DNA of 64,000 nucleotides, taken from assembly GCA_031362565.1 (NCBI GenBank), contig JANLSU010000081.1:59768-123767 (forward strand), given 5' to 3'. The notes under the pieces were generated by a model, which did not search any database, was not told where the DNA came from, and worked only from the letters and a program-made list of their open reading frames with translations. Of this stretch, positions 18,060-57,760 are shown piece by piece. Numbering within the stretch: the stretch's first letter is position 1; every line of letters starts with the position of its first letter. Position numbers and translations under genes: made by a program. The DNA comes from a bacterium (GTDB lineage Bacteria > Krumholzibacteriota > Krumholzibacteriia > G020349025).

Positions 18060-18079
18060 GTCGCCAGTCTCCTCTTCGA

Positions 18080-22568: not shown

Positions 22569-22708
22569 TCCCAAAGCCGGTGCGCGCGCCAAGGGCATCG
22601 TTCCCTTGGCGCACGCACGCGGTGCGGAGAGTTTGCTACACTCCTCGGTGTTCCCTTTGGATCCTTGGCCGTGAGGGCCTACGGGCGGACCGCACCGAGG
22701 CAAAGCGC

Positions 22709-40251: not shown

Positions 40252-41431
40252 GAGCCTGACCCTCGAGACCGCAGCACCGGCCCGTCGAGACGCGGCCGTG
40301 GGCGAGGCTCTCGTCTGGGATTCGACGAATACATCGGCCGTCGTCATCGCCCGCGGCTTGCGGCGGCTCGGATGGCGCGTGCACTGGCTTGGGACCCCCG
40401 TGTCGCCGTGGCGGAACTGCTCCGCTTTCAATGGTGAGCACTTCCTCGTACAAGGTCTCAACGACGAGAGATTGGCGACGGTGTTCGCGGCGCGCGAGTT
40501 CGACGCCGTGTTCCTGCACGGCGACGACCAGGTGCGCTGGATTCTGGAGCACTGGAACGCCGTACCGGAGCGGGTGCGTGCCGGACTCAGTGCCCCGGAC
40601 GCGCTGCGAACTGCGCTCTCGAAGGAGCAGACGGCAAAGCTCGCCACGAGCCTCGGAGTCCCCGTCCTGCCCACGCTGCGCTGTAGCTCACCGGCGGAAG
40701 TCGCGGCGGCGGCGCAAACGCTGGCGCCGAACGGCGGTCAGATCGTGCTCAAGGGCGAAGGCGGCGCAGCAGGGTGCACCGTCGGGGCGGTCACTGCCGG
40801 CCGGGCACCGGATCATGACACGTGGGCACGCGTGACGCGTTTTTCGCCAGTCGCACTCGTGCAGCGCCGCATCGCCGGGCCGCGGGTATTCGCGAGCGTG
40901 GTGTACGAGCACGGCGTCGAGCGCGCTGCATGCATCCACGAGAAGATTGCCACTTTTCCATATGACTTTGGCCCCACGGCATTCGGGGTCACACGCCACG
41001 TCGACGCGGTGCATGACGATCTGCAGCGCATGTTCGGCGCCCTGCGCTGGCATGGCATCGCCAACGCCGAGTTCCGCCAAGACTCGAGCGACGGCCGCTG
41101 GTATTTCATGGAAATCAATCCGCGCGTCAACGCGAGCGCCGGCATTCAAGAAGCGGCGGGAATGGATATCGCGGCCACCTGGGCCGCCGTGTGCCACGGG
41201 GTGCGGCCGGCGCGGTGGCCGGGCCGCGAGTATCGTGACGGCGTGCGCTTCGCTTGGGGAGTGCGCGGCATCGCTCTCGCACTGCAAAGACCGTGGAGCG
41301 TTCCGGCATGGGGCCTGCGGAGCATGCTGGATGGCGGTTCAGATCTCGCCTATCTCGATCCGGCGCTGCGCTGGCGCGCGGCGCGTCTCGGACTATGGAT
41401 GGCCCGTCAGAACCGATTCCGCCGGCACTGA
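40244..41431 (+). CDS. ATP-grasp domain protein, paralog 2 (tandem duplicate of the upstream gene)
   Basis: Collinear similarity to paralog 1 (VWDSTNTSAVVIARGLRRLGW, LHGDDQVRWILE, LKGEGGAAG, WYFMEINPR). 8-nt overlap ATGCTTGA with paralog 1. Confidence 0.7.
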   Translation: MLESLTLETAAPARRDAAVGEALVWDSTNTSAVVIARGLRRLGWRVHWLGTPVSPWRNCSAFNGEHFLVQGLNDERLATVFAAREFDAVFLHGDDQVRWILEHWNAVPERVRAGLSAPDALRTALSKEQTAKLATSLGVPVLPTLRCSSPAEVAAAAQTLAPNGGQIVLKGEGGAAGCTVGAVTAGRAPDHDTWARVTRFSPVALVQRRIAGPRVFASVVYEHGVERAACIHEKIATFPYDFGPTAFGVTRHVDAVHDDLQRMFGALRWHGIANAEFRQDSSDGRWYFMEINPRVNASAGIQEAAGMDIAATWAAVCHGVRPARWPGREYRDGVRFAWGVRGIALALQRPWSVPAWGLRSMLDGGSDLAYLDPALRWRAARLGLWMARQNRFRRH

Positions 41432-42682
41432 ATGCTCGTCAAGCACCGGCAGCGCCGCCGCGGTCGTTGCCGGGGCCGTCGTAGATGCGCCGCGCTGCTT
41501 CGCGTACGCCGACAGTGTCTTCGGCGCCTCGCAATCAAAACCAAGTCCCACGAGACGCATCGCATCACGATGTTCCAGGTGACGCCCAAGGCACGTCGCG
41601 AGCAGCCCATAGCCGTCGGTCACTTGCGGACTCTCCAGATCCCACATGTCGTTGGCCTCGACGAACACCGGCCCTGCCGGCGTGAAACCCAAGTCCCAGC
41701 CGAGGCAAGCGTTCATCGGCACGGCGCGCGCCGCGCGCCGCACGAGATCCACTGCATGATCCCACCCGGGAACGATCGTCCCCTCGATGGGCAAGCCGCT
41801 CGCGGGATGAGCCACGGTAGTACGAACAACGCCCGAAATCTTTTGCAGTCCGCTTCCCAGCCGCCCCGTCGCAGGGTCGATACGCGCCGCGATGTTCCCT
41901 TGACTGAAGTTGTCGACCGCGCTCATCCCCGTGCCGATGCGTAACACAGCACCGACGATCTCGACCTGACCGCGTTCATCCATCACCGTCACGATGCGCG
42001 CCGTGTGCAGGACACCCGGAGCGAAACGCGCCAGGGTCGGGTGCGGGCGCAAGCGCCGTTCAATGAGGTATCCCGCCGGCGTCATGCCGGCGTTCAAGCG
42101 CGCGGCAAGGGATTCAGCGCTAATCCGCTCCTCGCCCACGCCGCGCCAAGTGGCCGTGCCCAGACGCTCACCGAGCGCCACCAGACCTCGCCCACGGTTG
42201 CCGCGCGTCAGCTTGAAGACGACTTCTTCGATGCGTTCGCTCTCGAGCCACTGGAAGAGTTCGGCGACGCAGGTGAGCGGCTGCCCCGTCTCCGCCCGCC
42301 CGGCGGGACCGAAGTGACCGAGAAGCGGCGCGACCGGGAGCCCGGCCTGCGCCAGGAAGCGCGAGAAAACCAGTTTGTCCTGGGTCAGCGACCGGTAGGA
42401 GTACGGGTTGAACGCTTGGATCCATCGCCAATGGTCCATGACGCCCAAGTACTCGCACTTGGCGTCCCAGGGGACAGCGCGTGAGTCCAGACCATACTTG
42501 TAGTAATCCGTCGCGGTGATTCCTCGCCGTGCGAGGAGGACACACTGTTCCGCAATGCGGCGCGCAAGCGCTGCTTGACCGCCGTGGCGGAGGTGGATCG
42601 GGACCCCGGCCAACATCTCGGCCGCATATCGAGCCCAATTTCCACAGGCGCGCAGTTGTCGCATTTCCAGAGCCTTTTGCAT
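41393..42682 (-). CDS. ATP-grasp-like protein (possibly sugar-transfer-associated ATP-grasp type)
   Basis: Start at MQKALEM... (the upstream track-ORF extension is low-complexity Arg-rich). Region GVLHTARIVTVMDERGQVEIVGAVLRIGTG...NFSQGN resembles RimK/ATPgrasp_ST-like folds. Assignment tentative. Confidence 0.45.
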   Translation of the reverse strand: MQKALEMRQLRACGNWARYAAEMLAGVPIHLRHGGQAALARRIAEQCVLLARRGITATDYYKYGLDSRAVPWDAKCEYLGVMDHWRWIQAFNPYSYRSLTQDKLVFSRFLAQAGLPVAPLLGHFGPAGRAETGQPLTCVAELFQWLESERIEEVVFKLTRGNRGRGLVALGERLGTATWRGVGEERISAESLAARLNAGMTPAGYLIERRLRPHPTLARFAPGVLHTARIVTVMDERGQVEIVGAVLRIGTGMSAVDNFSQGNIAARIDPATGRLGSGLQKISGVVRTTVAHPASGLPIEGTIVPGWDHAVDLVRRAARAVPMNACLGWDLGFTPAGPVFVEANDMWDLESPQVTDGYGLLATCLGRHLEHRDAMRLVGLGFDCEAPKTLSAYAKQRGASTTAPATTAAALPVLDEHSVPAESVLTGHP

Positions 42683-42726
42683 GCAATCCAGCTCATCGCC
42701 ACCAGCACCATTCGTACCGCGTGATG

Positions 42727-44196
42727 TCAGGAGAGGGCGAGCGCCGCCGGCCGCAGCTCGGCGTCGATGTCGCGGCCCATGCGCGACGAGATCTCGACAA
42801 CCGCCTGGACGTCCGCATTCCGCGTGTTGAAGTTCACGATGCAGGCGCGCAGCACGTAACGGCCGCGAATCACCGCATTCGAGACGAAGGCTTCGCCACC
42901 CACCTGCATGCGGGCAAGCACTTCCCTGTTGAGTGTATCGAGGTACTCGTCGACCGCCGCTTCGCCGATGCGGCCGCGCAGATCGGGCGGCACACAGCGG
43001 TAGGTCGTAATGCTCAAGCTGCAGGTCATGAATTCGAGGTCCGGCGTGCGGCGAACCGCTGTGGCCATCGATTCTGCAAGGGCGATGTCGTCGGCGATCA
43101 TGCGCCGGTAGCCGGCAGCGCCGGCCTGCCGGAGTGCCAGCCACACTTTGAGGGCCCGGAAGCCGCGCGAATTCTGCGGGCTGAAGTCGACGTAGTTCAG
43201 CGCGCTCTCGCCAAAGTGGTAGTAGGGCGGATGGTACGAGAACGCTTTGCGCATCAACTCGACATCCCGCACCAACGCGCAACCGGCTTCGAGCGGCGCG
43301 TACAGCCACTTGTGCGGGTCGACGGCGACCGAATCGGCGTCACTCAAGGCGCGTAGGTCGGCTGGAACACCATCCACCGCGGCCGCGAATCCGCCGTAAG
43401 CGCCATCGACGTGGAACCAGAGCCGCTCTTTCTTGCATAACGCGGCGATGGCCGCGAGCGGATCGATCGCGCCCGTACTCACGGAACCCGCGGTGCCCAC
43501 CACCATGAACGGCAGGTCGCCGGCGGCGCGGTCGGCGGTGATTTGCCGTTCGAGCTGCGCCACGTCCATACGCAGGTCGTCGCCGGTCGGGATGAACCGA
43601 ATCGTGTCGGTCCCCAGCCCCGCGAGGTCGGCCGCTTTGTGAATCCAGGTATGCGTTTCCGCCGATGCGTAGGCCCGCAACGTCCGGCCGCCTGCCAACC
43701 CCTTGGCGCGCACATCCCAGTCGGCCATCGCCGCTCGGGCCGCCCAAAGGCCAACCATGTTCGCCATGTTGCCGCCACTCACGAGCACGCCGCCGCAATC
43801 GGCCGGGTAGCCGATCAACTCGGCGATCCAGCGCGCCGTTTGCGATTCGATTTCGCTCGCAGCCGGCGACAGGATCCACGCGCCGCAGTTCGGGTTCACA
43901 GCTGCTGCGAGCAGATCCGCGAGCATGCCGATCGGCGCCGGCGATGACGTGATGTAACCCAGAAATCGCGGGTGGCCGTTGAACAATGAATGGTCGAACA
44001 GGAGGCGCGCGGTTTCTGCGAGCAGCGGCCCCGGCGCGAGCCCGTGTTCAGGCAGCGGGCCATTGAGGTCCAGCGCGGCGCGCACCGCGGCGGGCGATTC
44101 GCCTGGGGTCACGGGCCGCGATGGCACCGAAGCCAACAGTTCGGCGAGTTGGTCGACGCGCCCGTGCCCAGCGGCGCGAAACGCGGCGGGATCCAT
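42727..44196 (-). CDS. PLP-dependent group II amino-acid decarboxylase
   Basis: N-terminus MDPAAFRAAGHGRVDQLAELL resembles DDC/GAD-family starts. PLP-lysine motif DSVAVDPHKW. Start at the internal ATG rather than the GTG at 44262. Confidence 0.8.
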   Translation of the reverse strand: MDPAAFRAAGHGRVDQLAELLASVPSRPVTPGESPAAVRAALDLNGPLPEHGLAPGPLLAETARLLFDHSLFNGHPRFLGYITSSPAPIGMLADLLAAAVNPNCGAWILSPAASEIESQTARWIAELIGYPADCGGVLVSGGNMANMVGLWAARAAMADWDVRAKGLAGGRTLRAYASAETHTWIHKAADLAGLGTDTIRFIPTGDDLRMDVAQLERQITADRAAGDLPFMVVGTAGSVSTGAIDPLAAIAALCKKERLWFHVDGAYGGFAAAVDGVPADLRALSDADSVAVDPHKWLYAPLEAGCALVRDVELMRKAFSYHPPYYHFGESALNYVDFSPQNSRGFRALKVWLALRQAGAAGYRRMIADDIALAESMATAVRRTPDLEFMTCSLSITTYRCVPPDLRGRIGEAAVDEYLDTLNREVLARMQVGGEAFVSNAVIRGRYVLRACIVNFNTRNADVQAVVEISSRMGRDIDAELRPAALALS

Positions 44197-44292
44197 TCGG
44201 AGCGGCACATCGCGGGTCGTTGCATCAGGCGTCGAATTCGGCGTCGTTGGATTCAGTGTCACACCTTCAGGAGAGGGGCGCTCCGCGCGCGC

Positions 44293-47200
44293 TTACGGAC
44301 GCACGACCACTGCTTTGCGGGTGGCGACGAATTCATCGGCCCGCAGGCGCACCAAGTACACGCCGCGCCGCACGAGGGCGCCGGTCGCGTCGCGCCGGTC
44401 CCAACTGACGGCATAAAGTCCCGCTCCCCGCGTGCCTTGCTCGAGGCTGCGGATGCGGCGCCCGGCCACGTCGAAGATCTCCAAACGCAAATCACGCGCA
44501 CCGCGCTCCAATGCGTACTCGATGCGGACGACCGTGCCATCCTGCCACGGTTCGCCGAGGAAAGTGTGCAAGACAGCCGCGGGCGCCGGCGGCATGTCCG
44601 GCACGTCGGTCGGCACGAGCGTCACGACGGTGTAGACGAAAACGCGCCCGTCCGGCGGGTACGTGCTCGCACCGACCAACACGTCACGGTGCCCATCTCC
44701 GGTCACATCCCGATCCGCTGCCACGGCCGCACCGAAACGGGTTCCGGGGGTTCCCAGCAGCACGGCGGCCGGAAGGTCGTCGGCATTTGAACCTCCAGCG
44801 AAAATCAGCACCCGCAATGCTGCACCGCCGACGGGGTTCAGCGTCCCCACTGCCAGATCCGCGTCGCCATCGCCATCGAGGTCGCCGGCCGACAGACTGG
44901 CGCCCAGTTGCTCACCCGCCGACGGCGAGTCGTACACCCAGTCGGCCGTCACATTCAACACGCCTGGACCGCCGCGAAACACGCTGACGCGACCGCCGAT
45001 GCCGCGCCCCGGCGCGCCAACAATAACGTCGGACCAGCCGTCACCGTCGAAGTCGGCGGCGGTGATCGCATCCCCGAACCGGCCGCCATCGCCGTTCAGT
45101 ACCAAGTCCGGCGAGCCGTCCACCGACGGGCCCCCGAAGTACACGTACACGGCGCCAAAATCGGTGCCGCCGACATCATTGTCCGGCGCCCCGACAAGGA
45201 AGTCTTGGTATCCGTCGCCGTTCAAGTCGCCGCCACGCGCCGCACGCGTGCCGAATCTCTCGCCGGGAGACTGCGCCACCAGGAAGCGGTCGGGATTCGT
45301 GTCGAAGGCCGGACCGCCAAAGTACAAGAACCCAAGTCCATTGAATGCGCCGGGGATGCCGATGAGCAGGTCGTCGTACCCGTCGGCATTGACATCACCG
45401 ACGCCGGCCAGCCCCTCACCCATGTGACCGCCGGGACTTGAACCGGTGAAAACGCGGTCCGCGAAAACGTCGAGATTAGGGCCACCCAGGTACGCGTACA
45501 GCCTTCCCCCATCCAGCGCGCCCATGTCCGCGAGCGGGGCGGCCACCACGAAATCACCGTAGCCATCACGATTCAGGTCGCCGGCGGCGAGTGCCACGCC
45601 AAAGCCGTCGCCGGAGACTTCACCCCCGATCCCCAATTCCGGCGAACCACCGAGCGCCGTACCGCCGAACTCCAAATGCAGCCGGCCCACGCCGGGCGGG
45701 CTGATCGATTGTGCACCCGCGACCAGGTCGGCGATTCCATCGCCGCTCAAATCCGCAGTTGTAGCCAGCGGCTCGCCGAATTTGGTTTCGAAGGCAGCCG
45801 CTTCAATGAAAAATTCCGGCGGTGAGATGGTGCCCGCGGTCGCCCGCGCCGTGCACGAGAACACCTGGTGGCAGGTGGCATCTTCTGCTACGAACATGAT
45901 CGTGCTGATTTGGAACTGACCCACCGGCAATGTTGGCGCCGTGAGACTAAAGCCAACGAACGCAATTTGCCCACTGGGCACCGTGATGTTCTGCGCCACA
46001 GGCGTTCCCCAGCCGCGCGAGTCTTGGATGGTGTAGGCGAACGTTTGCGCCGACAGCGACGTGTTGAGAAGCTGGAACGTCGTCGGGCGTGCGACGCCGC
46101 TCGGCGCCAAAAAGTCGGCGGGACAAGTGACCCCGGCCGTCACCATCGCCGGGAGGACGCGCGAGACGCAGGCGATCTGGCTCAGCGGACAGCCGGTGAT
46201 CGCCACTTGAAACCGCACCGAGTCGATCTGCGTGAAGCAGAGCGGCGGGACTTGGAGAGTGATCACCGCGCTTGCCGTTTGGCCCGGCGCCACCGTCTGC
46301 GTGCCGGTGACCGGCGCACCCCAGCCACGCGTGTCGTTGAGTGAGTATTCGTACGTGCGTGCGAACAAGCCCTCATTGGTCCAACGGGCGCGGCGCTGCA
46401 CCGTGACGTTGTCGCCGACGGTGGTATCCGCCGGGCATTGCAACACCGCGGCATGAAACGGCACGACCACGTGCGACGTGCATTGGAACTCACGAGCCGG
46501 ACACGCCGTACTCGTGACATGCAGGGTAACTGCATCGTCTTGCGCTACGCACACCAGGGCCGGCGTCGTGAGTGCGTAATCGACGGTGTGTGTTTGCCCA
46601 ACGCCCAAATTCACGCTGCCCGACTGCGGCGCACCCCAGCCGAAGGCGTCGCCGGCGGAATAGTTGTACGTCAGCGAGGTCGTCGACGAGTTCGTGAAGT
46701 GGAGCAGGCGGTGGACACTTTGGCCGGCGTCGACCGTCGTGTCGACGGCACACGCAACCGTCACCGCGGAGACCGCCGTGACCGAAAGGGTCTTCGACAC
46801 TTGAACCCAAGCGCTGGGCGCCGCGCATTGGTCGCGGACGCGGGCGATCATCGTCAGCACATCGCCGCACTGCGCACCGACCGGCAACGGGCAGACCCGA
46901 GTCATGCAGAATACGCCGCCCGGGACCAGCGTCACGGTGCTCGATCCAGTGGGGCAACCGTTGGCCCAGCCCGACGTTTCGTAAACGTAGTTGCGCGTCG
47001 CCTGAGTCACATTCTGGAAGCAGAACTGCAACTGGGCCTGTTCCCCCGGCTCAGGGAGCGTGTCCAGCAGCGCGCACGTGGTGATGACCGGCGGAGCCAC
47101 TGTCCGCAGAACCGTCACTTGTTTCGTCAGTGCCGGGCTAGCGCACCCCGGCGGGATCAACGAGATGGTCACCGTGCTGCCGGCCGCACATGAAGCGCCG

Positions 47201-48657
47201 CTCGCAGTCACCGGCAGGTCGAAACACGCCGAGTCGCCCGACGCAATCGTCGGACTGGCGTCGAAGGGGCTCACCCAGCCCTGATCGTCGGCGATGTGCA
47301 CGTTGTACACCAAGGCCGTGAACTCGTCGTTGTGCACACACAGGTGCAGATTCACTGTCGCGCCGGCCGCGACCGTCAACTGCGCGGGCGCGGTGATGCG
47401 GATGCGATCCGGCCGCTCCAAGTACGCGCGCCCGACACCACCTTGCAGCGGCGCGCCCACCAAAAGCTCCGCGGTTCCGTTGCCATCGGTATCCGGCCCA
47501 ACGGCGCCGGCGGAGGCAAAGCCATCGAGAGGCACCTCCGCCGTCCAAATCTGTTCCGGCACGTCGTCGACGGCCGGCCCACCCTCATAGATGCGTACCT
47601 CGCGCCCCGATACACCAACGACGAAATCCCCGAGCCCGTCGCCGGAGAGGTCGCTACCCGCGGCCACGAAGCGGCCGAAATTTGTCGTCAGTCCGCCCAG
47701 GAACAAATCGGCGAATTCGTCGCTCGACGGCCCGCCGTAAAAGACGTACGCCGTGCCGCCAGTGCCGCCGAAAGTGGGAGCTCCCGCGACGAGGTCGGGC
47801 TGCGCATCGCCGTTCACGTCGCCGACCGCGAGCGCTTCGCCGAAACCAGTTCCCACGCCGCCCGCGATCAGAACCCGGTCCGCGAGTGCGTCGAACCCAG
47901 CGCCGCCCCAGAACAGCTTCGTGCGTGCGCCCGCCCCGCTGCCGGGGGCGCCGGCGGCCAAATCCGCGACCCCATCGCCATTGAGGTCACCGAGCGCGAC
48001 CGCCGCGCCCAACTGTTCGCCAAACGCACCGTTAGCCGTCAGACTCGGAATCGTCGGCGGAGGCGCGGCGCCAAAGTAGACGAACACCTTACCTTCAAGC
48101 CCGCTGGGCGAAGCTCGCGGCGCACCGACCACCAGGTCTGCGCCGCCATCCTGATTCAAGTCCGCTCCGCCCCCCAAGGCGGTGCCGAAGCGCCCGCCAG
48201 GCACTGGACCATTGAGGATGACATCCGCCACCGCGTCGAATGCCGGACCTCCAAAATAGATGTACACGCGGCCGGCGTCGGTGCCTGCGAGGTCGTCGAA
48301 GGGTGCGCCCACGGCCAGGTCGCGGAATCCATCGCGGTTCCAGTCGCCGATCGAGGCCACCGCCGCGCCGAAGCGATCGCCCGGGGCAACGCCCACGAGC
48401 GTGAAGTCGGGAGTCACATTGCGCGGCGCACCGCCGCGGTATACGTAGACCCGGCCCGCCCCCGTGGTGGTGGTCTGCGACGCTACGGCCCAATCGCCGA
48501 ATCCGTCCGCATCGATATCGCCGGCGAGAACGCACGCATTACCGAAGCTCTGTGCAACGGAGGGAGCGAACAGAATACTCGAACACGCGGTGTGGGCCGC
48601 CGGTGCGGCGGCGACAAGCAGCACGGCGCTGGAGAGCACCAATCGAGTGGCACGCAT
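44293..48657 (-). CDS. exported FG-GAP/VCBS repeat protein (1454 aa) with T9SS-type C-terminal domain
   Basis: Signal peptide MRATRLVLSSAVLLVAAAPAAHTA. More than 10 repeats of FGxxVAxxGDxNGDGxxDLxVGAP. C-terminal 75 aa (44296..44520) ...LRLEIFDVAGRRIRSLEQG...SWDRRDATGALVRRGVYLVRL...RKAVVVRP. Confidence 0.7.
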   Translation of the reverse strand: MRATRLVLSSAVLLVAAAPAAHTACSSILFAPSVAQSFGNACVLAGDIDADGFGDWAVASQTTTTGAGRVYVYRGGAPRNVTPDFTLVGVAPGDRFGAAVASIGDWNRDGFRDLAVGAPFDDLAGTDAGRVYIYFGGPAFDAVADVILNGPVPGGRFGTALGGGADLNQDGGADLVVGAPRASPSGLEGKVFVYFGAAPPPTIPSLTANGAFGEQLGAAVALGDLNGDGVADLAAGAPGSGAGARTKLFWGGAGFDALADRVLIAGGVGTGFGEALAVGDVNGDAQPDLVAGAPTFGGTGGTAYVFYGGPSSDEFADLFLGGLTTNFGRFVAAGSDLSGDGLGDFVVGVSGREVRIYEGGPAVDDVPEQIWTAEVPLDGFASAGAVGPDTDGNGTAELLVGAPLQGGVGRAYLERPDRIRITAPAQLTVAAGATVNLHLCVHNDEFTALVYNVHIADDQGWVSPFDASPTIASGDSACFDLPVTASGASCAAGSTVTISLIPPGCASPALTKQVTVLRTVAPPVITTCALLDTLPEPGEQAQLQFCFQNVTQATRNYVYETSGWANGCPTGSSTVTLVPGGVFCMTRVCPLPVGAQCGDVLTMIARVRDQCAAPSAWVQVSKTLSVTAVSAVTVACAVDTTVDAGQSVHRLLHFTNSSTTSLTYNYSAGDAFGWGAPQSGSVNLGVGQTHTVDYALTTPALVCVAQDDAVTLHVTSTACPAREFQCTSHVVVPFHAAVLQCPADTTVGDNVTVQRRARWTNEGLFARTYEYSLNDTRGWGAPVTGTQTVAPGQTASAVITLQVPPLCFTQIDSVRFQVAITGCPLSQIACVSRVLPAMVTAGVTCPADFLAPSGVARPTTFQLLNTSLSAQTFAYTIQDSRGWGTPVAQNITVPSGQIAFVGFSLTAPTLPVGQFQISTIMFVAEDATCHQVFSCTARATAGTISPPEFFIEAAAFETKFGEPLATTADLSGDGIADLVAGAQSISPPGVGRLHLEFGGTALGGSPELGIGGEVSGDGFGVALAAGDLNRDGYGDFVVAAPLADMGALDGGRLYAYLGGPNLDVFADRVFTGSSPGGHMGEGLAGVGDVNADGYDDLLIGIPGAFNGLGFLYFGGPAFDTNPDRFLVAQSPGERFGTRAARGGDLNGDGYQDFLVGAPDNDVGGTDFGAVYVYFGGPSVDGSPDLVLNGDGGRFGDAITAADFDGDGWSDVIVGAPGRGIGGRVSVFRGGPGVLNVTADWVYDSPSAGEQLGASLSAGDLDGDGDADLAVGTLNPVGGAALRVLIFAGGSNADDLPAAVLLGTPGTRFGAAVAADRDVTGDGHRDVLVGASTYPPDGRVFVYTVVTLVPTDVPDMPPAPAAVLHTFLGEPWQDGTVVRIEYALERGARDLRLEIFDVAGRRIRSLEQGTRGAGLYAVSWDRRDATGALVRRGVYLVRLRADEFVATRKAVVVRP

Positions 48658-48819
48658 TGTTGCCGTCCCCTGGAAGGTGCGGATGAGGATACTGCGGGAC
48701 GGCGGTGGCGGCAAGCTTCACGGTAGTCACCGCACCCCCCATCATCGAGAGTAAGATGCCAGCGTCCTGGGTTGGCCTCGCCCCCCCGGACTCTTGAGAA
48801 GCGAACCAAGGAGACTGCG

Positions 48820-49533
48820 GTGGATTTGAAAGGTGCTCGCACCCTGATCACGGGTGGCAGCGATGGGATTGGACTCGCGATCGGCCAAGCGCTCGTGGAG
48901 AAAGGTGCCCGCGTGGCGCTGCTGGCGCGTCGCTCCGACCGGCTGACCGCGGCAGCCAAAGAGATCGGTGCAATCGGCATCACCGGAGATGTCTCGAAGC
49001 CCGCTGACGCCGACGCCGCGGTGGCCCGCGTGGTGCAGGAGTTTGGCGGCCTCGACATCTTGATCAACAACGCCGGCTTCGGTACATTCGGCGCGTTGAC
49101 CGAACTGCAGCTCGAGGACTTCGAGCGCACCTTCGCCACGAACGTCACGGGGGCGATGCTGATGGCGCGGGCCGCGGCGCCGCACATGATCCGCCAGGCG
49201 TCGGGCAACATCTTGAACATCTCATCCACGGCCGGACTTAAGGGCTTTGCGAATGGGACGACATACTGCGCCACGAAGTTCGCGCTGCGCGGCATGACGG
49301 AGTGCTGGCGCGAAGAACTGCGCCGCCATAACATCCGGGTCACGCTCGTGAACCCGAGCGAGGTACAGACGAACTTCGGCAAGGCGGCCGGTGGGCAGGC
49401 GCGCCCCTTCAACGGAAAAAAACTCCGTGCCGAGGAGATCGCCCGCGCCATCGTCGGCGCACTGCAGATCGACGACCGCGGCTTCATTCCCGAGTTTTCC
49501 GTCTTTGCCACGAACCCGTTTCCACCCGCGTAA
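48820..49533 (+). CDS. SDR family short-chain dehydrogenase/reductase
   Basis: TGGSDGIG (Rossmann), NNAG, YCATK (catalytic Y-x3-K). Start at GTG with AAGGAG 6 nt upstream. Confidence 0.8.
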   Translation: MDLKGARTLITGGSDGIGLAIGQALVEKGARVALLARRSDRLTAAAKEIGAIGITGDVSKPADADAAVARVVQEFGGLDILINNAGFGTFGALTELQLEDFERTFATNVTGAMLMARAAAPHMIRQASGNILNISSTAGLKGFANGTTYCATKFALRGMTECWREELRRHNIRVTLVNPSEVQTNFGKAAGGQARPFNGKKLRAEEIARAIVGALQIDDRGFIPEFSVFATNPFPPA

Positions 49534-49548
49534 TCAAGGAGACATCCA

Positions 49549-49785
49549 TTGGCAGCAACGAAGGTCACGATCAACCTCAATGGCCCACTTCGCATCGAAG
49601 GCGACTTCGAGATCGTCGACTCGACCGGCAAGAGCTACGGCCTCGCCGGTCGAAAGGTCATCAGCCTCTGCCGCTGCGGTCAGTCGTCCAAGAAACCGTT
49701 TTGTGACGGCACTCACAACACGTGCGGTTTCCAGCACACCAGCGCGGCATACGACCTGGCGCCTCCCGCGCGTCCGCCGGCCTGA
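49549..49785 (+). CDS. CDGSH-type iron-sulfur domain protein
   Basis: CRCGQSSKKPFCDGTH matches the CxC-x(8-10)-CDG(S/A/T)H signature. Confidence 0.75.
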   Translation: MAATKVTINLNGPLRIEGDFEIVDSTGKSYGLAGRKVISLCRCGQSSKKPFCDGTHNTCGFQHTSAAYDLAPPARPPA

Positions 49786-49812: not shown

Positions 49813-50937
49813 TTACCGGGACGGGCTGCTGTATGCAGAGACGGCGGGTCGAACTTCCTCGTCCCGCAGACAGTCTTCCAGGGCAGTGACCGCTCGATCC
49901 CAGGTGAATTGCTGAATGAAGCGGTTCGCGTTCTGGGACACTTGGAGGCGCCGGATGTTGTCCCGCACGAGCATTGAGATGTTCAGCGCCAGAGCAGCCG
50001 GTTCCCTTGGCGGGCTGAGCAGCGCCGTCTCGCCGTGAATGCCGTATTCCTGGTGGCCGCCGATATCCGTCAGGCAAGGGGCCGCACCGCACTGCATCGC
50101 CTCGGCTGGGGGTAGAGGCCACCCCTCCGCCCAGCTTGGCCCCACAAAGATCGCCGCCGCGTTGTAGAGACGGCGCAAATCAGGCTGCGACGGTTTCTGT
50201 TGATAGCGAATCCAAGCGGGGAGGCCTCGAGGCCGTGCCGGGACGCCGAAGAGCGTCGCCGCGAGATCAGGGATCTCGGCCTTGACGATATCGATGGCAC
50301 TCAGGCCGTCCGCCGACCCTTTCCCCTCCGAGTCGTGATACAGCATGACGAGTTGCTTGGGGTTCCGTTCCGCGGCCGGCAGATCGAGGCCAAAGACGGA
50401 AAAGTCGAGGCCATTGGGGATATAGACCGCCGCTTCGTGCAAACCTCGAGCGATCGCCTCGAGCCAGCGGGCGATGACGATCTTATTGAGCGGCAGCTTC
50501 CAAGTGGCCATGGCCCGATCCGGGTCCACGCCCGCGAACGTCGATTCCTGGCCCTGGATCAGATAGAACTTTCGCCCCGTGTACGGCGGATAGCCGGCGA
50601 CCCATTCCGCCGTTTCCCACGCCGTGGCGATCACCGCATCGGCAGCCGGAATCCAGCGCGGATGGAGACTGGGGACCCACTCCATCCGCACCCGTGGATC
50701 GATGCTGAACCACCTCTTGGGCAAGTACCCACCCTTCGCACCCAGCTTTCTGCCCCCATAGACAAGATAGCGCTTGGCTGTTCTTATCGCTTCCATCTCT
50801 CGATGGAGACTGTGGGGGGCATGAACGACCGTAACCTCATGCCCGCTTCGCACGAGGCCATTGGCGTATTCGTAGGCGACCTTCAATCCCCCCACGGGGT
50901 TCTCGCCGGAGCCGGGAAGAACGAAACAAATGCGCAC
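49813..50937 (-). CDS. glycosyltransferase family 4
   Basis: GT-B fold. C-terminal EGWPLPPAEAMQCGAAPCLTDIGGHQE (E-x7-E region). Start at GTG (VRICFVLPG) with GGAGG 6 nt upstream. The longer track ORF begins at TTG. Confidence 0.7.
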   Translation of the reverse strand: MRICFVLPGSGENPVGGLKVAYEYANGLVRSGHEVTVVHAPHSLHREMEAIRTAKRYLVYGGRKLGAKGGYLPKRWFSIDPRVRMEWVPSLHPRWIPAADAVIATAWETAEWVAGYPPYTGRKFYLIQGQESTFAGVDPDRAMATWKLPLNKIVIARWLEAIARGLHEAAVYIPNGLDFSVFGLDLPAAERNPKQLVMLYHDSEGKGSADGLSAIDIVKAEIPDLAATLFGVPARPRGLPAWIRYQQKPSQPDLRRLYNAAAIFVGPSWAEGWPLPPAEAMQCGAAPCLTDIGGHQEYGIHGETALLSPPREPAALALNISMLVRDNIRRLQVSQNANRFIQQFTWDRAVTALEDCLRDEEVRPAVSAYSSPSR

Positions 50938-51065
50938 TTCATTCCTCCAGGTGCGTACCAACGGCCATCATAAGACGGTTGGAAGCACCGCGCCAGCAGC
51001 CGGGGAATCGAACCCACCTTCCCCTTGGGCTCGCCAACCGTCTCCGTAGCCATCGATTTGCCGGA

Positions 51066-54000
51066 ATGGTGTTGTCTGAGCCTTGGTTGATATCGGACAA
51101 TGCGAGGGCACCCTACGTCGTAGGATACGGAGCCGACATCGACATGTACACGGACGAACAGACCGCCGCCCGCGTTCGGTTGCTGCACGGCATCTTCGAA
51201 CAGCAGGCGCGCACTTACCCGACCGGCATCGCGCTCGACGTACCCCCGACGGGTGCTGGTGTGCCGCGCCGCCAGCTCACCTACGCCGAAGTGAATGCCG
51301 CTGCCGACGCCTTGGCCGTCCGGCTCGCAACCTACGTGCATGGGGAATGTTTGGTGGCGATCATGCTGCCACGCGCCGGCACGGAACTGTTCGTCGCGCA
51401 GCTCGCCATTATGAAGGCTGGTGCGGCCTGGACGTGTATCGAGCCCTCGACGCCCGATGAGCGGCTGCGTTTCTTGATCGACGATTCGCGTGCGGTGGCC
51501 GTGATCGCCGACGATGCGAGTGGCGACCGGCTTGAATCCATCGGCTTCCCCGAGCCTCGCATCGTGAGCCTGAACAAGGTCGACGTTGCTTCGATCCCCG
51601 CGGCTCCGCGCCGCGCCACTCCCGCTTGGCTCGGTCCGGAGACGCTGGCCTACGTCATCTATACCTCGGGCACGACGGGACACCCCAAAGGGGTCATGAT
51701 CGAGCACCGTAGCGTCGCCAACCTCGTGCTCGCGGATGCCGGCTACTTCGACCTGCGCCCGGGCGACCGCATCGCCCAAACTTCGTCGGCGGCCTACGAC
51801 TCCTCCGTGGAAGAGGTGTGGCTCGCGTGGGCCAAGGGCGCCACCGTCGTCGTGGTGGATGATGAACGGGTTCGCTCCGGCCCCGACCTGTTGCCCTGGT
51901 TACGCGCCGAAGGGATCACCGTCTGGTGTCCCGCTCCAACCCTGCTCCGGATGGTGTGCAGCGACAATCCGCAGCGCGACTTGCCCGATATCCGCCTGCT
52001 GTACGTGGGCGGCGAGGAGCTGACTCCGGACGTGGCGCAGCTTTGGGCGCCCGGCCGCCGGTTGGAGAACGGCTATGGACCCACTGAATGCACCGTGACC
52101 GTGGTCCGCACGACGGTGCACGCCGGAGAACCGGTGACGATCGGCAGGCCGGTGCCGGGCAATCGCGCCTTCGTGGTGAATTCCGAACTCCAGGAAGTAC
52201 CCGAAGGCGAGATCGGCGAACTCTGCATTGCCGGCGAGAGCGTCGCGCGCGGCTATCTCGGGCGACCGGAGTTGACCGCCGAGCGCTTTATCGACCACGC
52301 GCGCTTCGGCCGCGTCTATCGGACCGGAGACTTGGTACAGATGGTGCCGGGCGGGGCGCTGGCCTATCTCGGCCGCGCCGACACGCAGGTGAAGATTCGC
52401 GGCCACCGGATCGAGTTGACGGCCATCGAAAGCGAGCTGTGCCGCTACCCGGGCATTCTCGGGGCGGCGTGCTGCGTGCAAGCGAACGGCGCCGGACCCG
52501 AACTCGTGGCCTTCGTGGTGACCGAGAACGGCTCCGAGCCGGAACGGGAAGCGATCGGTCACTGGCTGCGCCGCACTCTGCCCGAGCCAATGGTGCCGTC
52601 ACACATCGCCCGGCTCGACGCACTGCCGCGCGGCGCGCTCTCGGGCAAGCTCGATCGCGGCGCGTTGCCGAAAGTGACCCACGCCCCGCGCGCCACACAA
52701 ACCGGACGCGCACCCGCCGGCGCCGCCGAGCAGGCCGTCGCGAATGCATTCGCGCACCAGCTCACCGCGGTGGAGGACATTCCGGCCGAGGCCGATTTCT
52801 TCCTCGATCTGGGCGGCAATTCGCTCGTCGCGGCGCAGGTCATTTCGGAGTTGCGGCGCGACGCGCGCACCGCGTCGCTCACCGTGCGTGATTTGTATGA
52901 AACGCGCACCGTAGCCGGACTGGCGGCACGCGTGCCGGAATTCGCGCCGCACGCGCCGGGTGCCAAAGCTGCACCGGCGCAACCAACTGCCGCATCGCTC
53001 GTCGCCGACATCGGCAGGCGCGTGTCACCGCACGCCGGGTGGGGTGCGGCAGCGCAATTCGCATTCCTGGCGTTGGCATTGCTGGTGACTGTGAACGCGG
53101 CGTGGTTTGTAGTTTTCGACATCGCGGCAGCGATGGCGAATGCCGTCGGAACGCGACTGTTCATGCTCCTGCTCCCCGTTCTGATCCTTGCGGCGGCGCT
53201 CACCTGGACACTGCTCGCCACCGCACTCACGGTGGTCGCCAAGCGCGTCCTCATCGGGCGTTACACCGCCGGCCGCCACCCCTACATGGGCTCAATGTAT
53301 GTGCGTCACTGGATCGTGAGCCAGTTTGCCCGCAGTGTGTCGTGGGACTTGCTCGAGAGCATCGGGCTGCGCGCCCACGTGCTGCGCGCGCTCGGCGCGA
53401 AGATCGGTGCCGAGGTGTATTTGCACCGCGGCGTGGGACTGCAGCAAGGTGGCTGGGACCTGCTCGAGATCGGCGACGGTGTCGCACTCGGGCGCGACGT
53501 GTCGCTCGGGCTCGTGACGTACGACCGGCAGCAGCTCGTCTTCGCACCGGTGTCGATTGGCGCCAACGCCACGCTGGACACGCGCTCTCGCATGGCTCCC
53601 GGCAGCCGAATTGGAGAGGGTGCGTTCCTGGCGGCGCTGGCATGGCTGCCAAGCGGCGCGAGTGTGCCGGCCGGTGAACGTTGGGACGGGGTGCCGGCGC
53701 GACCCGTAGGCCAAGCGCCTCCACCACCCGTGCCTTCGCTGGAGTCGCTGCAGCCAAGTCTGTGGCACAAGGCAGTGTTGCTGGCGGCAAAAACAGTCGC
53801 GGCGCAAATCGCCTTCCTGCCATGGTTCGCTCTCGCCGCTGTCGTGTTGTCGGCATGGAGGAGCGGCAACGGTTCGTCGACATTCCTCGAGTTGCCGTTG
53901 CTCGCGCTCGCCGGCGCCCTGGTCACGTGCTACGCCCTGTCGTTACCACTGCAAGCAGTGTTGTGCCGGCTTCTCGGACGCGTGCGCCCCGGCATCTATC

Positions 54001-55142
54001 CGCTGCACGGACGCACGGCGCTCACGGTGCGCTTGAAGGAGCGCCTTGTCGAAACTGCCAACGTAGCGCTGTCCGGTACGCTCGCGTGGCCGGTGTGGCT
54101 GCGCTGGGCCGGCATGCGCGTCGGCCGGCGATGCGAGATCAGCACCATCATGGAAGTGACGCCGGAATTGGTGGAGATCGCCGACGACTGCTTCTTTGCC
54201 GACGGCATCTACTTAGGACGGCCGCTCGTGCATCGTGGGCATCTCTATTGCGAACGCACGGTGTTCGAGCATCACACGTTCCTCGGCAACCACGCCGTGA
54301 TTCCGGCCGGCGCCCAACTGCCGGACAACGTTTTGCTCGGTGTGTGCACGGTGGCCGACCCGGAACGCATCCGGCCCGACACCGGTTGGTTCGGACATCC
54401 AGCGTTCGAGCTTCCCCGCCGCGAGTTGGTTGCTGCCGACGACAGCCTGACGTTCAGTCCGTCGCCACTCCGCGTCCTCAACCGCGCGCTGTGGGAGAGC
54501 TCACGGCTCTTCCTGCCGGTGCTGCCGGCATTCGTCGTGGCGTTCTGGGCCACCGAGTTGCCGCGCCTGGCAGAGCACTGGGCGACGCCGGCGCTGCACC
54601 TCTGGGTGCTGCCGCTCGCAGCGCTCGCGACGGCGGCGTTCCTGTGCGCGCTCACGGTTGCGACCAAGTGGCTGTTGCTGGGGCGCATGCAGGAGGCGCG
54701 ACACGTGTTGTGGTCGTGCTGGTGCAGCCGTTGGGACTTCCTGTTCGAGGTGTGGTCGGCGTACGCGCGGCCGGTCATCGATACATTAGAGGGCACGCCG
54801 CTCGTGGCGTGGTGGCTGCGCGCCATGGGAGCCCGCATCGGGCGGCGCGTCGTGTTCGGAACCAACCTCTCGCAAGTGGTGGACCCGGACATGATCGAGA
54901 TCGAAGACGACGCCACGGTGTCGTGCCATCTGCAGTTGCATAGCTTTGAAGACCGGGTGCTGAAGCTCGGCAAGACACGCATCGGCGCCGGCAGCACGGT
55001 CGCGGCCGGCGCACTCCTTCTCTACGGGGCACGGATCGAAGCCGGCGCGCACGTGGCGGAGCAGAGCGTCGTGATGAAGCACGAGCACCTGCTGCAAGGC
55101 CAGGCGTACGAAGGCGCACCAACCCGGCCGGTGGGCGCTTGA
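51066..55142 (+). CDS. Pls-type single-module NRPS-like synthetase: adenylation - thiolation - [2 TM + soluble domain] x3 (homopoly-amino-acid synthetase-like)
   Basis: A-domain core motifs LTYAEVNAAAD, YTSGTTGHPKGVMIEH, AAYDSSVEEVW, GELCIAGESVARGYLGRPELTAERF, YRTGDL, GKLDR. PCP motif FFLDLGGNSLVA. Then three units, each with a pair of hydrophobic helices followed by a ~120-aa domain with left-handed-beta-helix-like repeats. No canonical C or TE domain. Alternative start ATG 51144. Confidence 0.75.
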   Translation: MVLSEPWLISDNARAPYVVGYGADIDMYTDEQTAARVRLLHGIFEQQARTYPTGIALDVPPTGAGVPRRQLTYAEVNAAADALAVRLATYVHGECLVAIMLPRAGTELFVAQLAIMKAGAAWTCIEPSTPDERLRFLIDDSRAVAVIADDASGDRLESIGFPEPRIVSLNKVDVASIPAAPRRATPAWLGPETLAYVIYTSGTTGHPKGVMIEHRSVANLVLADAGYFDLRPGDRIAQTSSAAYDSSVEEVWLAWAKGATVVVVDDERVRSGPDLLPWLRAEGITVWCPAPTLLRMVCSDNPQRDLPDIRLLYVGGEELTPDVAQLWAPGRRLENGYGPTECTVTVVRTTVHAGEPVTIGRPVPGNRAFVVNSELQEVPEGEIGELCIAGESVARGYLGRPELTAERFIDHARFGRVYRTGDLVQMVPGGALAYLGRADTQVKIRGHRIELTAIESELCRYPGILGAACCVQANGAGPELVAFVVTENGSEPEREAIGHWLRRTLPEPMVPSHIARLDALPRGALSGKLDRGALPKVTHAPRATQTGRAPAGAAEQAVANAFAHQLTAVEDIPAEADFFLDLGGNSLVAAQVISELRRDARTASLTVRDLYETRTVAGLAARVPEFAPHAPGAKAAPAQPTAASLVADIGRRVSPHAGWGAAAQFAFLALALLVTVNAAWFVVFDIAAAMANAVGTRLFMLLLPVLILAAALTWTLLATALTVVAKRVLIGRYTAGRHPYMGSMYVRHWIVSQFARSVSWDLLESIGLRAHVLRALGAKIGAEVYLHRGVGLQQGGWDLLEIGDGVALGRDVSLGLVTYDRQQLVFAPVSIGANATLDTRSRMAPGSRIGEGAFLAALAWLPSGASVPAGERWDGVPARPVGQAPPPPVPSLESLQPSLWHKAVLLAAKTVAAQIAFLPWFALAAVVLSAWRSGNGSSTFLELPLLALAGALVTCYALSLPLQAVLCRLLGRVRPGIYPLHGRTALTVRLKERLVETANVALSGTLAWPVWLRWAGMRVGRRCEISTIMEVTPELVEIADDCFFADGIYLGRPLVHRGHLYCERTVFEHHTFLGNHAVIPAGAQLPDNVLLGVCTVADPERIRPDTGWFGHPAFELPRRELVAADDSLTFSPSPLRVLNRALWESSRLFLPVLPAFVVAFWATELPRLAEHWATPALHLWVLPLAALATAAFLCALTVATKWLLLGRMQEARHVLWSCWCSRWDFLFEVWSAYARPVIDTLEGTPLVAWWLRAMGARIGRRVVFGTNLSQVVDPDMIEIEDDATVSCHLQLHSFEDRVLKLGKTRIGAGSTVAAGALLLYGARIEAGAHVAEQSVVMKHEHLLQGQAYEGAPTRPVGA

Positions 55143-55828
55143 CGCCCTCGGCGAGCACGACGCGCGTTGCGGGCCCGCCGGCAGGCATCGTAGATTTGTG
55201 GTGCGTGCATCTCGATGCACCGAACTTCCCGGACGCCGCACTCGCGGCAACGCTCGACCCTTCGGAGCAACAACACGCGGCGTGCATGCGGGTCGGCGGC
55301 CGCGCCTGGGCTTCCGGGCGTGGCGCACAGCGCGTGATCCTCGCGAGTTATCTCGAGGTGCCGGCGAGCGCGCTGGAGTTTTTCGCCGCGCAGTCCGGCA
55401 AGCCTGGGCTCTCGAACGCGCCCAGCCTACAATTCTCGTTCGCGCGCACCGATGGTCTGGCGGTCGTCGCCGTTGCCAGTGACCGCGAGGTTGGCGTCGA
55501 CGTCGAGCGTGAGAACGACCGCACCGACATCGACGGCGTGGCGCAGGAGTTCTTGCCGGCGGGCGAGGCCGCCGCACTCGAGGCAACGCCACTCGGTCAA
55601 CGCCGCAGCGCTTTCTTTGGCGCCTGGGCGCGTCACGAAGCGCGCCTCAAGCTCGAGGGGCAGGGGCTTACCGGTCGCACCTGGGACGGCGCGCGGCCAA
55701 GCGCGGCGCTCGTCGTCGTGCGCGCACTCGCCCTACCGCCCGGCTTCGCCGGCGCGATCGCGGCCGTGAACGACACCTGGACGGTACGCGTCAAGGAATT
55801 CCCAGTCCTAGCGGCGCGGCTACGCTAG
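55139..55828 (+). CDS. 4'-phosphopantetheinyl transferase (Sfp type)
   Basis: QSGKPGL, FSFARTDGLAVVAVA...VGVDVE, WARHEARLKLEG motifs. ATGA overlap with the synthetase stop. Confidence 0.7.
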   Translation: MTPSASTTRVAGPPAGIVDLWCVHLDAPNFPDAALAATLDPSEQQHAACMRVGGRAWASGRGAQRVILASYLEVPASALEFFAAQSGKPGLSNAPSLQFSFARTDGLAVVAVASDREVGVDVERENDRTDIDGVAQEFLPAGEAAALEATPLGQRRSAFFGAWARHEARLKLEGQGLTGRTWDGARPSAALVVVRALALPPGFAGAIAAVNDTWTVRVKEFPVLAARLR

Positions 55829-56836
55829 CGGCGGAACCGCGCCTTGATATCGCCCCACGATGCAGCGCGCACGGCCGTCGTCGCCAGCGGCGTCGACCAC
55901 AATCCGTCGGTACGCGCTGCAAAGAGCTTGTCGCCCGCAACTTTCGATTTCGAATACGAACGTGTCGTCAACCGCGTCGATCGATTGCCACGTCTCGCCG
56001 GCTCCCGGGCTCGAGTAGAATTGGTGCGTGTTGTTGAGGAAATCAACCACTGCAAAGACGGTCGCGCCGACGTGCGCGAAGAACACCGCCGAGCCGTTGG
56101 CCAGGCCGCCTCCCACGAGCGTCCAAGACTGTGCATCGTTCGTGATTTGGTAAACCGATGGGCCGTTGCTCACGAGGAGGTTGGTGCCATCGCTGAAAAT
56201 GTCCGTCGCCGTGAATCCCGGCAGCAACGGCGGCCGTACGGCGACCTCCTGCCACGCGGTCGCGCCCTGTGGAAACCGGTGGATCAGACCGTACGGTCCT
56301 GCCGGCGCCACGAGCGTTGTACCGTGCAGGAGGATCGAGCTTACGGATCCGGAGATCGACAGCGGCAGATCGTTGTTGAAGGCCGTCCACGTTGTCGGCG
56401 TCGCGAGCGCGAGTGCGAACACCCCGCTGCCATCGGTGCCGGCGTAAAGGATGCCGTCTTTTACCGCGAACTCCGTGATGTGGTTGGCTCCGATGCCAGC
56501 CAGGCCACTGTTGACGCTGTTCCAGGTCAGACCGTCATCCGGGCTGCGAAACACACCCTGTCCAAAGCTCCCTGCCCAGAGTGCGCCGCCCGCCGGGATC
56601 ACCGTGAAGATCGGTGCACTGCCGGCGCCTACCGGGTTCGACGCGGTCCACGTCGTGCCCTGGTCAGTGCCCCGGTAAACGCGGTCGCCGCTGGATGCAA
56701 ACAACGTGGTTCCGTGCAACTGTAGGGTTTCGATGTTCGCCGCTGGCAATTCCTCGACGCGCGTCCAGGTCAGAGATCGCGCCGGCGCCGCCGTACACAG
56801 AGTCAAACAGAGGATCCCAATCACTGGGCCGCGCAT
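55820..56836 (-). CDS. exported BNR/Asp-box repeat beta-propeller protein (Ycf48/sortilin-like)
   Basis: Signal peptide MRGPVIGILCLTLCTAAPA. Asp-box motifs GTDQGTTW, SPDDGLTW, SPGAGETW. Upstream track-ORF extension rejected. Confidence 0.6.
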   Translation of the reverse strand: MRGPVIGILCLTLCTAAPARSLTWTRVEELPAANIETLQLHGTTLFASSGDRVYRGTDQGTTWTASNPVGAGSAPIFTVIPAGGALWAGSFGQGVFRSPDDGLTWNSVNSGLAGIGANHITEFAVKDGILYAGTDGSGVFALALATPTTWTAFNNDLPLSISGSVSSILLHGTTLVAPAGPYGLIHRFPQGATAWQEVAVRPPLLPGFTATDIFSDGTNLLVSNGPSVYQITNDAQSWTLVGGGLANGSAVFFAHVGATVFAVVDFLNNTHQFYSSPGAGETWQSIDAVDDTFVFEIESCGRQALCSAYRRIVVDAAGDDGRARCIVGRYQGAVPPLA

Positions 56837-57055
56837 GGCGATTGTAGCGGTGTTCAAGAGGTTCGACACGAGCCGTTCCTGCGCTTCCTTCTGGAGTGTA
56901 ACCCACATGGAGCTTTGCCGGAGACCGCGCTGTCGCGCCATACCACGCGTCCCGAAGAATTGCTCGAGCGTCCGAAAGGTGCCGCTTGGTGTTTCCGGGC
57001 CTGGTGTGTTTAGCTCGCCCCGTGACACCAAGAAGCGTGTCGAAGGAGGATTCCG

Positions 57056-57760
57056 ATGAAGATGACCCTGGCCATCCTGCTCTTGGCCGCTGGAACGGCG
57101 TTCGCCAAAGAGCCTTCGCATACGGTGCGTCTCGCCAATGCCACCGCGGTGCTCGACGAGGTCATGCAGACGCCCGACCATGCCATTCCGCAGTACCTGC
57201 TCGATCGCGCCTACTCCATTGTCATCGTGCCGGATCTCAAGAAAGCCGCCTTTATCGTCGGCGGCAAGTACGGCAAGGGTTACATGTCGTCCCGCAAGAA
57301 GGACGGCACGGGATGGACCGCGCCCGGCACGGTGCGAATCGAGGGCGGCAGTTTCGGACTGCAGTTCGGGGGCGCGGAGAGCGACGTGATCCTGCTCATC
57401 ATGAACCCACGTGGGGTCGACCGGCTCCTCTCGAGCAAATTCACTTTGGGTGCTGACGCCGCAGTGGCTGCGGGACCGGTCGGCCGCGATGCGCGCGCCG
57501 ATACCGATGCGCATTTGACTGCCGAGATCCTGTCGTGGTCGCGCTCGCGGGGTGTTTTCGCCGGCATCGCGTTGACGGGGGCGACACTACGGCAAGATCT
57601 GAACGACAACCGCGAACTGTACGGCAAGCGGCTCGAGAACCGCGCCATCATCGACCAGGAATTGCCGGTGCCGGAGCCGGCCAAGAAGTTGATCGCGCTC
57701 CTCGACAAGGTCTCGCCGCACCGGACACAGGTGGAAGCGGAGACGACGGATCGGAAGTAG
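57056..57760 (+). CDS. exported SYLF (Ysc84/DUF500) domain protein
   Basis: GGAGG SD. Signal peptide MKMTLAILLLAAGTAFA. IVGGKYGKGY...GGSFGLQFGGAESDVILLIMN...GADAAVAAGPVG pattern of the SYLF lipid-binding domain. Confidence 0.65.
   Translation: MKMTLAILLLAAGTAFAKEPSHTVRLANATAVLDEVMQTPDHAIPQYLLDRAYSIVIVPDLKKAAFIVGGKYGKGYMSSRKKDGTGWTAPGTVRIEGGSFGLQFGGAESDVILLIMNPRGVDRLLSSKFTLGADAAVAAGPVGRDARADTDAHLTAEILSWSRSRGVFAGIALTGATLRQDLNDNRELYGKRLENRAIIDQELPVPEPAKKLIALLDKVSPHRTQVEAETTDRK

Follow-up and report, generated by a model that had tools for sequence, protein, structure and literature searches.

Pls, the epsilon-poly-L-lysine synthetase of Streptomyces albulus, is reportedly the founding member, described by Yamanaka and colleagues in 2008, of an architecture in which an adenylation (A) and a thiolation (T) domain are followed by three units, each composed of a transmembrane (TM) hairpin and a left-handed beta-helix (LbH) domain. 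The polymers made by this family of cationic homopoly-amino acid (CHPA) synthetases are used as food preservative, antifungal agents and cell-penetrating carriers. Seven natural polymers are known from it (PMC10522769). PosA, the delta-poly-L-ornithine synthetase of Acinetobacter baumannii, has the same A-T-(TM hairpin-LbH)x3 layout as the protein described here, and the LbH modules of its published AlphaFold model form a pseudo-trimer like the one modelled here (Patel & Gulick, 2023, Commun Biol 6:982). Here we analyse a 64,000-nucleotide stretch of a Krumholzibacteriota contig (JANLSU010000081.1, positions 59,768 to 123,767; hereafter the window), focusing on two adjacent genes at 51066-55828. 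As judged from its sequence, the locus encodes a single-module peptide synthetase that is anchored in the membrane and belongs to the poly-lysine/poly-ornithine synthetase family, together with a dedicated activating enzyme, a 4'-phosphopantetheinyl transferase (PPTase). The family and the architecture are known and the pocket of the lineage was flagged in 2023 (Patel & Gulick, 2023); the window provides a further member of that branch, of which no later characterisation was found in the literature searched. The additions are modest, namely a PPTase coupled through an NTGA overlap in one subclade, a TIGR02353 score below cutoff across the whole lineage, and the co-segregation of the specificity code with the polymerisation domain.

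The synthetase gene is located on the plus strand at 51066..55142. Its longest open reading frame (ORF) extends from a TTG at 50979 (50979..55142, 1387 aa), and the 1358-aa form initiated at ATG 51066 is 100% identical to database protein P0001; residue numbers of the code and the terminal domain given below refer to the 1387-aa form. The A domain (AMP-binding and AMP-binding_C), delimited by domain models and alignment, occupies 51195..52631, and the T domain 52734..52934, with the phosphopantetheine-acceptor Ser615 in the motif LGGNSL (nt 52821-52823). Pfam matches comprise AMP-binding (aa 73-427), AMP-binding_C (483-551), PP-binding (586-652) and Hexapep. The A-T didomain is single and N-terminal, and searches with Pfam and NCBIfam found no condensation or thioesterase domain in the synthetase, which agrees with the first-pass annotation of this DNA, made by a model from the letters alone. 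The ORF length of 1358-1387 aa that it had reported and the motifs that it had quoted (YTSGTTGHPKG, GELCIAGESVARGYLGRPELTAERF, YRTGDL, GKLDR and LGGNSL) are likewise all present in the translation.

The terminal polymerisation domain of Pls/PosA type (53067..55121) is matched end to end by TIGR02353, as had been anticipated, the alignment covering aa 697-1381 and positions 5-694 of the 695 of the model (E 1.5e-116, NCBIfam), with neither a condensation nor a thioesterase domain in this region. The hydropathy profile (Kyte-Doolittle) reveals six hydrophobic segments in three pairs (~690-712/727-755, 936-960/970-996 and 1176-1195/1207-1232), and the AlphaFold2 model of aa 668-1387, built from a 112-sequence alignment, exhibits two long helices followed by beta-helix strands in every unit (mean predicted local distance difference test score, pLDDT, 92.4; predicted template modelling score, pTM, 0.91). 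Together with the internal repeats detected by BLASTP (unit 1 against unit 3, E 1e-15; unit 2 against unit 3, E 5e-7), these data delimit exactly three tandem LbH/acetyltransferase-like domains, C1 to C3, with six predicted TM helices paired between them: unit 1 at 53046..53753 (TM1-TM2 hairpin, aa ~690-755, and C1), unit 2 at 53766..54482 (TM3-TM4, aa ~936-996, and C2) and unit 3 at 54486..55139 (TM5-TM6, aa ~1176-1232, and C3). The first-pass annotation had placed three such units at nucleotide boundaries with which the hydropathy agrees. The domain is collinear with that of PosA (30% identity over 659 aa, E 1e-66). The trimeric LbH acyltransferases, which include maltose, galactoside and serine O-acetyltransferases, NeuO, sugar N-acetyltransferases and LpxA/LpxD, are soluble homotrimers; unlike these, the window protein carries three LbH modules in one chain, with a TM hairpin before each, and its donor would be an aminoacyl thioester on the T domain in cis.

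At the residue level, 36 positions of the terminal domain are near-invariant across an alignment of 91 sequences that includes Lys-, Orn-, Dap/Dab- and DSEC-type members (Dap, diaminopropionic acid; Dab, diaminobutyric acid), and the window synthetase retains 36 out of 36. Unit 2 carries the family-invariant E1053, S1055, F1072, A1074, D1075, F1101, G1103 and N1104, and unit 3 the motif Q1319-x-H1321-x-F-E-D and K1329, both likewise family-invariant. We infer that the terminal domain shares the thioester-to-amine acyl-transfer chemistry of the family. The TIGR02353 score of 390.4 bits nevertheless lies below the curated equivalog_domain cutoff of 423.1, and the whole lineage falls at 364-395 bits (homologs from Bdellovibrionales, Kutzneria, Lentzea, Acidobacteriota and the closest metagenome-assembled genomes, MAGs), against 666 for PosA. 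The protein should therefore be regarded as a homolog in a divergent lineage and not as a certified functional equivalent. In practice, the NCBI family model misses the lineage, so that its proteins are annotated only as 'adenylation domain protein'.

The substrate pocket provides the second line of comparison. Residue numbers of the PosA sequence, taken from the supplement of Patel & Gulick (2023), define the code positions, and a MAFFT alignment to it yields the Stachelhaus code DSECYGGVTK (D274 S275 E278 C317 Y342 G344 G365 V373 T374 K557), the extraction that the first-pass annotation had recommended. D274 and E278 align to D217 and E221 of PosA, which provides Asp at position 1 and Glu at position 3, the pair that in CHPA synthetases binds the alpha-amine and the side-chain cation (PMC10522769); the Glu at the equivalent of A-domain position 239, previously aligned by eye, is corroborated by this alignment, and the equivalents of Asp235 and Lys517 are both present. 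When compared with the codes of all characterised CHPA synthetases (tabulated by Patel & Gulick, 2023), DSECYGGVTK differs at 4-6 of the ten positions from every one of them (Lys, Orn, Dab, D-Dab, Dap and beta-Lys): five mismatches separate it from the Lys-type code of Pls, DAESIGTV(V/I)K (DAESIGTVVK in Pls itself), five from the Orn-type code DMEHNGTV(S/T)K (DMEHNGTVSK in PosA) and four from the poly-Dab code DFECLSAVTK. The comparison with Pls was made through the code and the A domain, the Pls A-domain structure 7wew being among the PDB matches of the window synthetase (E 5e-69). By contrast with these mismatches, the code is exactly that of a pocket group labelled 'uncharacterised', to which Bdellovibrionales OFZ39577.1 and Novosphingobium WP_072382105.1 belong.

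OFZ39577.1, from Bdellovibrionales bacterium RIFOXYD12_FULL_39_22, has the same A-T-terminal-domain layout as the window synthetase, to which it is 43% identical over 1339 aa, and its TIGR02353 score of 384 bits also lies below the cutoff; the gene was recovered as our locus L051, whose N-terminus equals the synthetic gene of Patel & Gulick (2023). The A domain of this protein, Bdello_A, displayed modest activity with L-Arg, and Dap, Dab, Orn and Lys did not rise above background; as a possible true substrate, the authors proposed a larger analogue that would lend itself to polymerisation (Patel & Gulick, 2023). Because an A domain with an identical code failed to activate Dap, Dab, Orn and Lys, it is unlikely by analogy that poly-Lys, poly-Dap or poly-Dab is the product of the window synthetase. 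The best lead for the monomer would be L-arginine or a larger basic amino acid that resembles arginine or lysine. The first-pass annotation had held that the polymer cannot be told from the sequence; a cationic product does fit the family, but the code narrows the choice.

The code defines a lineage of considerable extent. Of the 122 best homologs, 106 keep it without change, down to 46% identity, and so do 71 of the ~77 related loci from GTDB species representatives in which the A domain is included. The labels of the related loci cover Thermoanaerobaculia, Blastocatellia, Bryobacterales, Eisenbacteria, Verrucomicrobiota, Planctomycetota, Armatimonadota, Myxococcota and Leptospiraceae, and cultured carriers of the lineage include Lentzea terrae and Kutzneria buriramensis DSM 45791. 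A search with the terminal domain retrieved 454 proteins at E<=1e-30 among 1.84 billion 50%-identity representatives; among the best 150 of these 454, the DSE branch accounts for ~38 of 89 full-length proteins, and in the representatives it spans Acidobacteriota, Eisenbacteria-labelled MAGs, Verrucomicrobiota, Planctomycetota, Actinomycetota and others. Full-length representatives scoring above ~350 bits in this search have codes of the DSE[C/T/M][Y/W]GG type in all cases but P0144, whereas those below ~350 bits have Lys-, Orn- or Dap/Dab-type codes. When the terminal domains are placed in a neighbour-joining tree, computed without bootstrap and with a short stem branch, the 38 DSE-type sequences come together in a single 40-tip clade. 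Going by this clade and the split of the scores by code type, the A-domain pocket and the polymerisation domain co-segregate. Under strict criteria, only seven positions of the terminal domain discriminate the lineage in the 91-sequence alignment. The pocket-forming A4-A5 segment is 62-72% conserved in the lineage, against 48-60% for the A domain overall, and this higher conservation suggests that the members share one substrate. The window synthetase belongs, on the sequence comparison, to a separate lineage and is not a Pls orthologue. The earlier proposal of a Pls-type synthetase of cationic homopoly-amino acids is supported for the family and the layout, and the homopolymer product is best worded as a proposal. 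A large branch with a strictly conserved specificity code bears on a testable question, that of the lineage product.

The second gene of the pair, at 55139..55828 on the plus strand, encodes a 229-aa PPTase of Sfp/HetI type. It matches PF01648 (E 1.3e-8), the HetI model (E 2e-23) and the AcpT model (E 1.7e-12), all below the equivalog cutoffs, and contains the motifs VGVDVE and WARHEARLK (WxxxEAxxK), the features of Sfp-type (group II) enzymes. The TTG start of the PPTase lies over the TGA stop of the synthetase, the junction reading gcT TGA, in a 4-nt overlap at 55139..55142. The previously reported overlap of 4 nt and the gene itself are real; the overlap is TTGA with a TTG start and not ATGA. 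An NTGA overlap (ATGA, GTGA or TTGA) occurs in 17 of 20 PPTase-linked related loci, which supports translational coupling of the PPTase to the synthetase, as the earlier reading had assumed. A homologous PPTase is found directly downstream in all related loci that are at least 66% identical, and in more distant loci labelled Eisenbacteria; it is absent next to the synthetase in Thermoanaerobaculia, Blastocatellia, actinomycete and Bdellovibrionales loci. The OFZ39577.1 locus, unlike the window, lacks a PPTase within 6 kb, and PosA has no co-transcribed neighbours, whereas the window synthetase overlaps its PPTase. One subclade with its own, probably translationally coupled, PPTase would constitute a self-sufficient two-gene unit for heterologous expression. 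An apparent fusion of the two genes, P0004 (1610 aa, L001:10001-14833), was considered as Rosetta-stone evidence and rejected as a frameshift artefact or pseudogene, the last ~95 synthetase residues continuing in another frame at 90% identity. Separately, P0191, a distant relative with a Lys-type code, apparently ends in an ACPS (PPTase) domain.

We propose that the two genes form a cassette in which a PPTase-activated A-T loader feeds a pseudo-trimeric LbH polymerase with a cationic monomer other than Lys, Orn, Dab or Dap, and we regard this as probable. The PPTase (55139-55828) would convert Ser615 of the T domain to the holo form, and the A domain would adenylate a cationic amino acid and attach it to the T domain in thioester linkage. 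The three TM hairpins would carry the three LbH modules, packed as a pseudo-trimer in the manner of the trimeric LbH acyltransferases. The C-terminal domain would move the aminoacyl group from the T-domain thioester to the amine of a free monomer or oligomer acceptor, iteratively and without template, as the family members Pls and PosA lead one to expect. The monomer, as Bdello_A indicates, may be arginine-like or a larger basic amino acid, and not Lys, Orn, Dab or Dap. Several points weigh against this proposal: a score of 390 against 423 bits on TIGR02353 means that identical function should not be assumed; the TM topology is a prediction founded on hydropathy and the AlphaFold2 model; the biochemistry of the clade is confined to one A domain with modest activity on L-Arg, and arginine offers no second amine that would be a good nucleophile in forming an isopeptide polymer; the literature searched reports no product for any clade member; and in the window, the cassette has no conserved companion gene for export, degradation or substrate supply. 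It is an even question whether the product of the DSECYGGVTK lineage is a cationic poly(amino acid) that has so far not been encountered in nature, for which a polymer based on arginine or homoarginine, or one of a modified long-chain basic amino acid, would be a candidate. If this were true, the synthetase-PPTase pair of the window would be a ready-made minimal expression cassette for product discovery.

The main rival is that the terminal domain does not polymerise and instead makes, at the membrane, a single transfer of a cationic aminoacyl group to another acceptor, for instance a polyamine, the head group of a lipid or an amine on a glycan. The chemical awkwardness of L-Arg, the only in-vitro lead, for isopeptide polymerisation speaks for it, as does the habit of LbH enzymes of making single acyl transfers to sugars or amines; moreover, no branch of the family is more divergent than this clade, and four of its members, P0129, P0132, P0139 and P0140 (~1700 aa), are fused to a C-terminal HGSNAT_cat/DUF418/Acyl_transf_3 membrane acyltransferase domain, which suggests envelope-linked chemistry. 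These four proteins share the code lineage and come from four different 50%-identity clusters. However, all family-invariant residues and the tripartite pseudo-trimer are kept, the strictly clade-discriminating positions are few, and no conserved acceptor-supplying gene adjoins the synthetase, the divergent glycosyltransferase described below being unique to the window. We judge a single transfer unlikely. Still less likely, in our opinion, is that the protein is an orthologue of a characterised synthetase (Pls, PosA or the poly-Dap/poly-Dab enzymes) and makes a known polymer. The architecture is the same, the Asp and Glu at code positions 1 and 3 occur as in all CHPA synthetases, and the closest code outside the CHPA synthetases with Glu239 is, we presume, that of Lys-activating domains; the code mismatches with Pls, PosA and poly-Dab given above, the lack of preference of the identical-code A domain for Dap, Dab, Orn or Lys, and the placing of the terminal domain in a lineage of its own, which co-segregates with the code, all argue against it. 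It appears highly improbable that the two genes are a remnant without activity, or that they are an artefact of gene calling in a high-GC metagenome-assembled contig. The window has a GC content of 63-69% and many spurious long ORFs, and the relative P0004 is itself a frameshifted call; yet the frame runs through 1358 aa without a break, the A domain has its full set of core motifs, every invariant column of the 112-sequence alignment is kept, and homologs of the same length exist at 46-82% identity.

In the related loci, the synthetase keeps company with several genes. A SET-domain (PF00856) gene lies immediately upstream of a DSECYGGVTK-type synthetase in 11 related loci from several phyla (L059:3188-4102 in Lentzea terrae, L045, L048, L061, L064, L066, L067, L068, L079, L083 and L086), on the synthetase strand in ten of them and on the opposite strand in L045. 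This neighbour suggests N-methylation of the monomer or polymer, and, together with the acyltransferase fused in four representatives, it hints at N-methylated or N-acylated amines in other subclades. In six loci of Blastocatellia type (L075:9622-10782, L050, L053, L057, L077 and L082), the gene of a class-A beta-lactamase-like serine hydrolase (PF13354) directly adjoins the synthetase gene at its 3' end; the hydrolase could be a product-degrading or self-protection enzyme. An M20 peptidase gene precedes the cassette in five of the nearest relatives (L014:2-1642, L002, L005, L007 and L012), and a multicopper oxidase with a FlgD_ig tail follows it in seven near relatives (L013:8462-11065 and six others). 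The SET, beta-lactamase-like, M20 and multicopper-oxidase partners of other loci are all absent from the 64-kb window.

Around the cassette, a family 4 glycosyltransferase (GT4) gene lies on the minus strand at 49813..50961 (PF00534, PF13692), divergent from the synthetase across a gap of ~105 bp, as the first-pass annotation had noted. It was discarded as a part of the system, since none of 86 related loci has a GT4 homolog within 6 kb, and it is probably unrelated to the cassette. All-vs-all clustering of the ORFs from 82 loci identified the PPTase as the only gene common to the window and its relatives; the other window neighbours, namely a short-chain dehydrogenase/reductase (SDR), an FG-GAP protein, a secreted beta-propeller-like protein, a Ysc84 protein and an NCS1 permease, are not shared. 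A scan for promoters and terminators gave nothing beyond chance, and there was no Rfam match. The 382-aa ORF at 48483-49631(-) appears spurious, with no family match and an odd composition, and it is explained by the SDR on the opposite strand at 48772-49533(+) (PF00106, E 8.5e-59), which is probably the real gene there. On the other side, the N-terminal half of the 564-aa ORF at 55820-57514(-) also looks spurious. Its C-terminal ~338 aa seem genuine, with a signal-peptide-like start at ~56836 and G-x-TW beta-propeller-like repeats, and at its 3' end it shares 9 nt, including the stop, with the PPTase gene, to which it lies tail to tail.

Further away in the window, three ATP-grasp ORFs at 39070-40251(+), 40100-41431(+) and 41393-43309(-), the last matching the 'sugar-transfer associated' PF14397, lie beside a pyridoxal-phosphate-dependent decarboxylase at 42727-44262(-). 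The segment 39070-44262 may be a separate small biosynthetic cluster, in which some ORFs overlap and the starts are predicted. Four secreted proteins of the window have FlgD-Ig-like C-terminal domains; large, probably secreted proteins with such a tail are a metallophosphoesterase (5107-8442(+)), a heparinase II/III-like protein (22580-25249(+)) and a 1473-aa FG-GAP repeat protein (44293-48714(-)). The same tail is present on the multicopper oxidase of L013, and it may be a lineage-specific C-terminal sorting domain. Taken with the labels of the PPTase-linked relatives, the four tailed proteins tentatively point to an uncultured bacterium akin to Eisenbacteria. Across three stretches of the minus strand (10885-22703, 25979-30678 and 35077-37200) are encoded a molybdopterin oxidoreductase with a 4Fe-4S/NrfD-like subunit, a NapC/NirT-type cytochrome, an S9 peptidase, a polyphosphate kinase 1 and a resistance-nodulation-division (RND) efflux pump, whose membrane-fusion protein carries a heavy-metal-binding domain.

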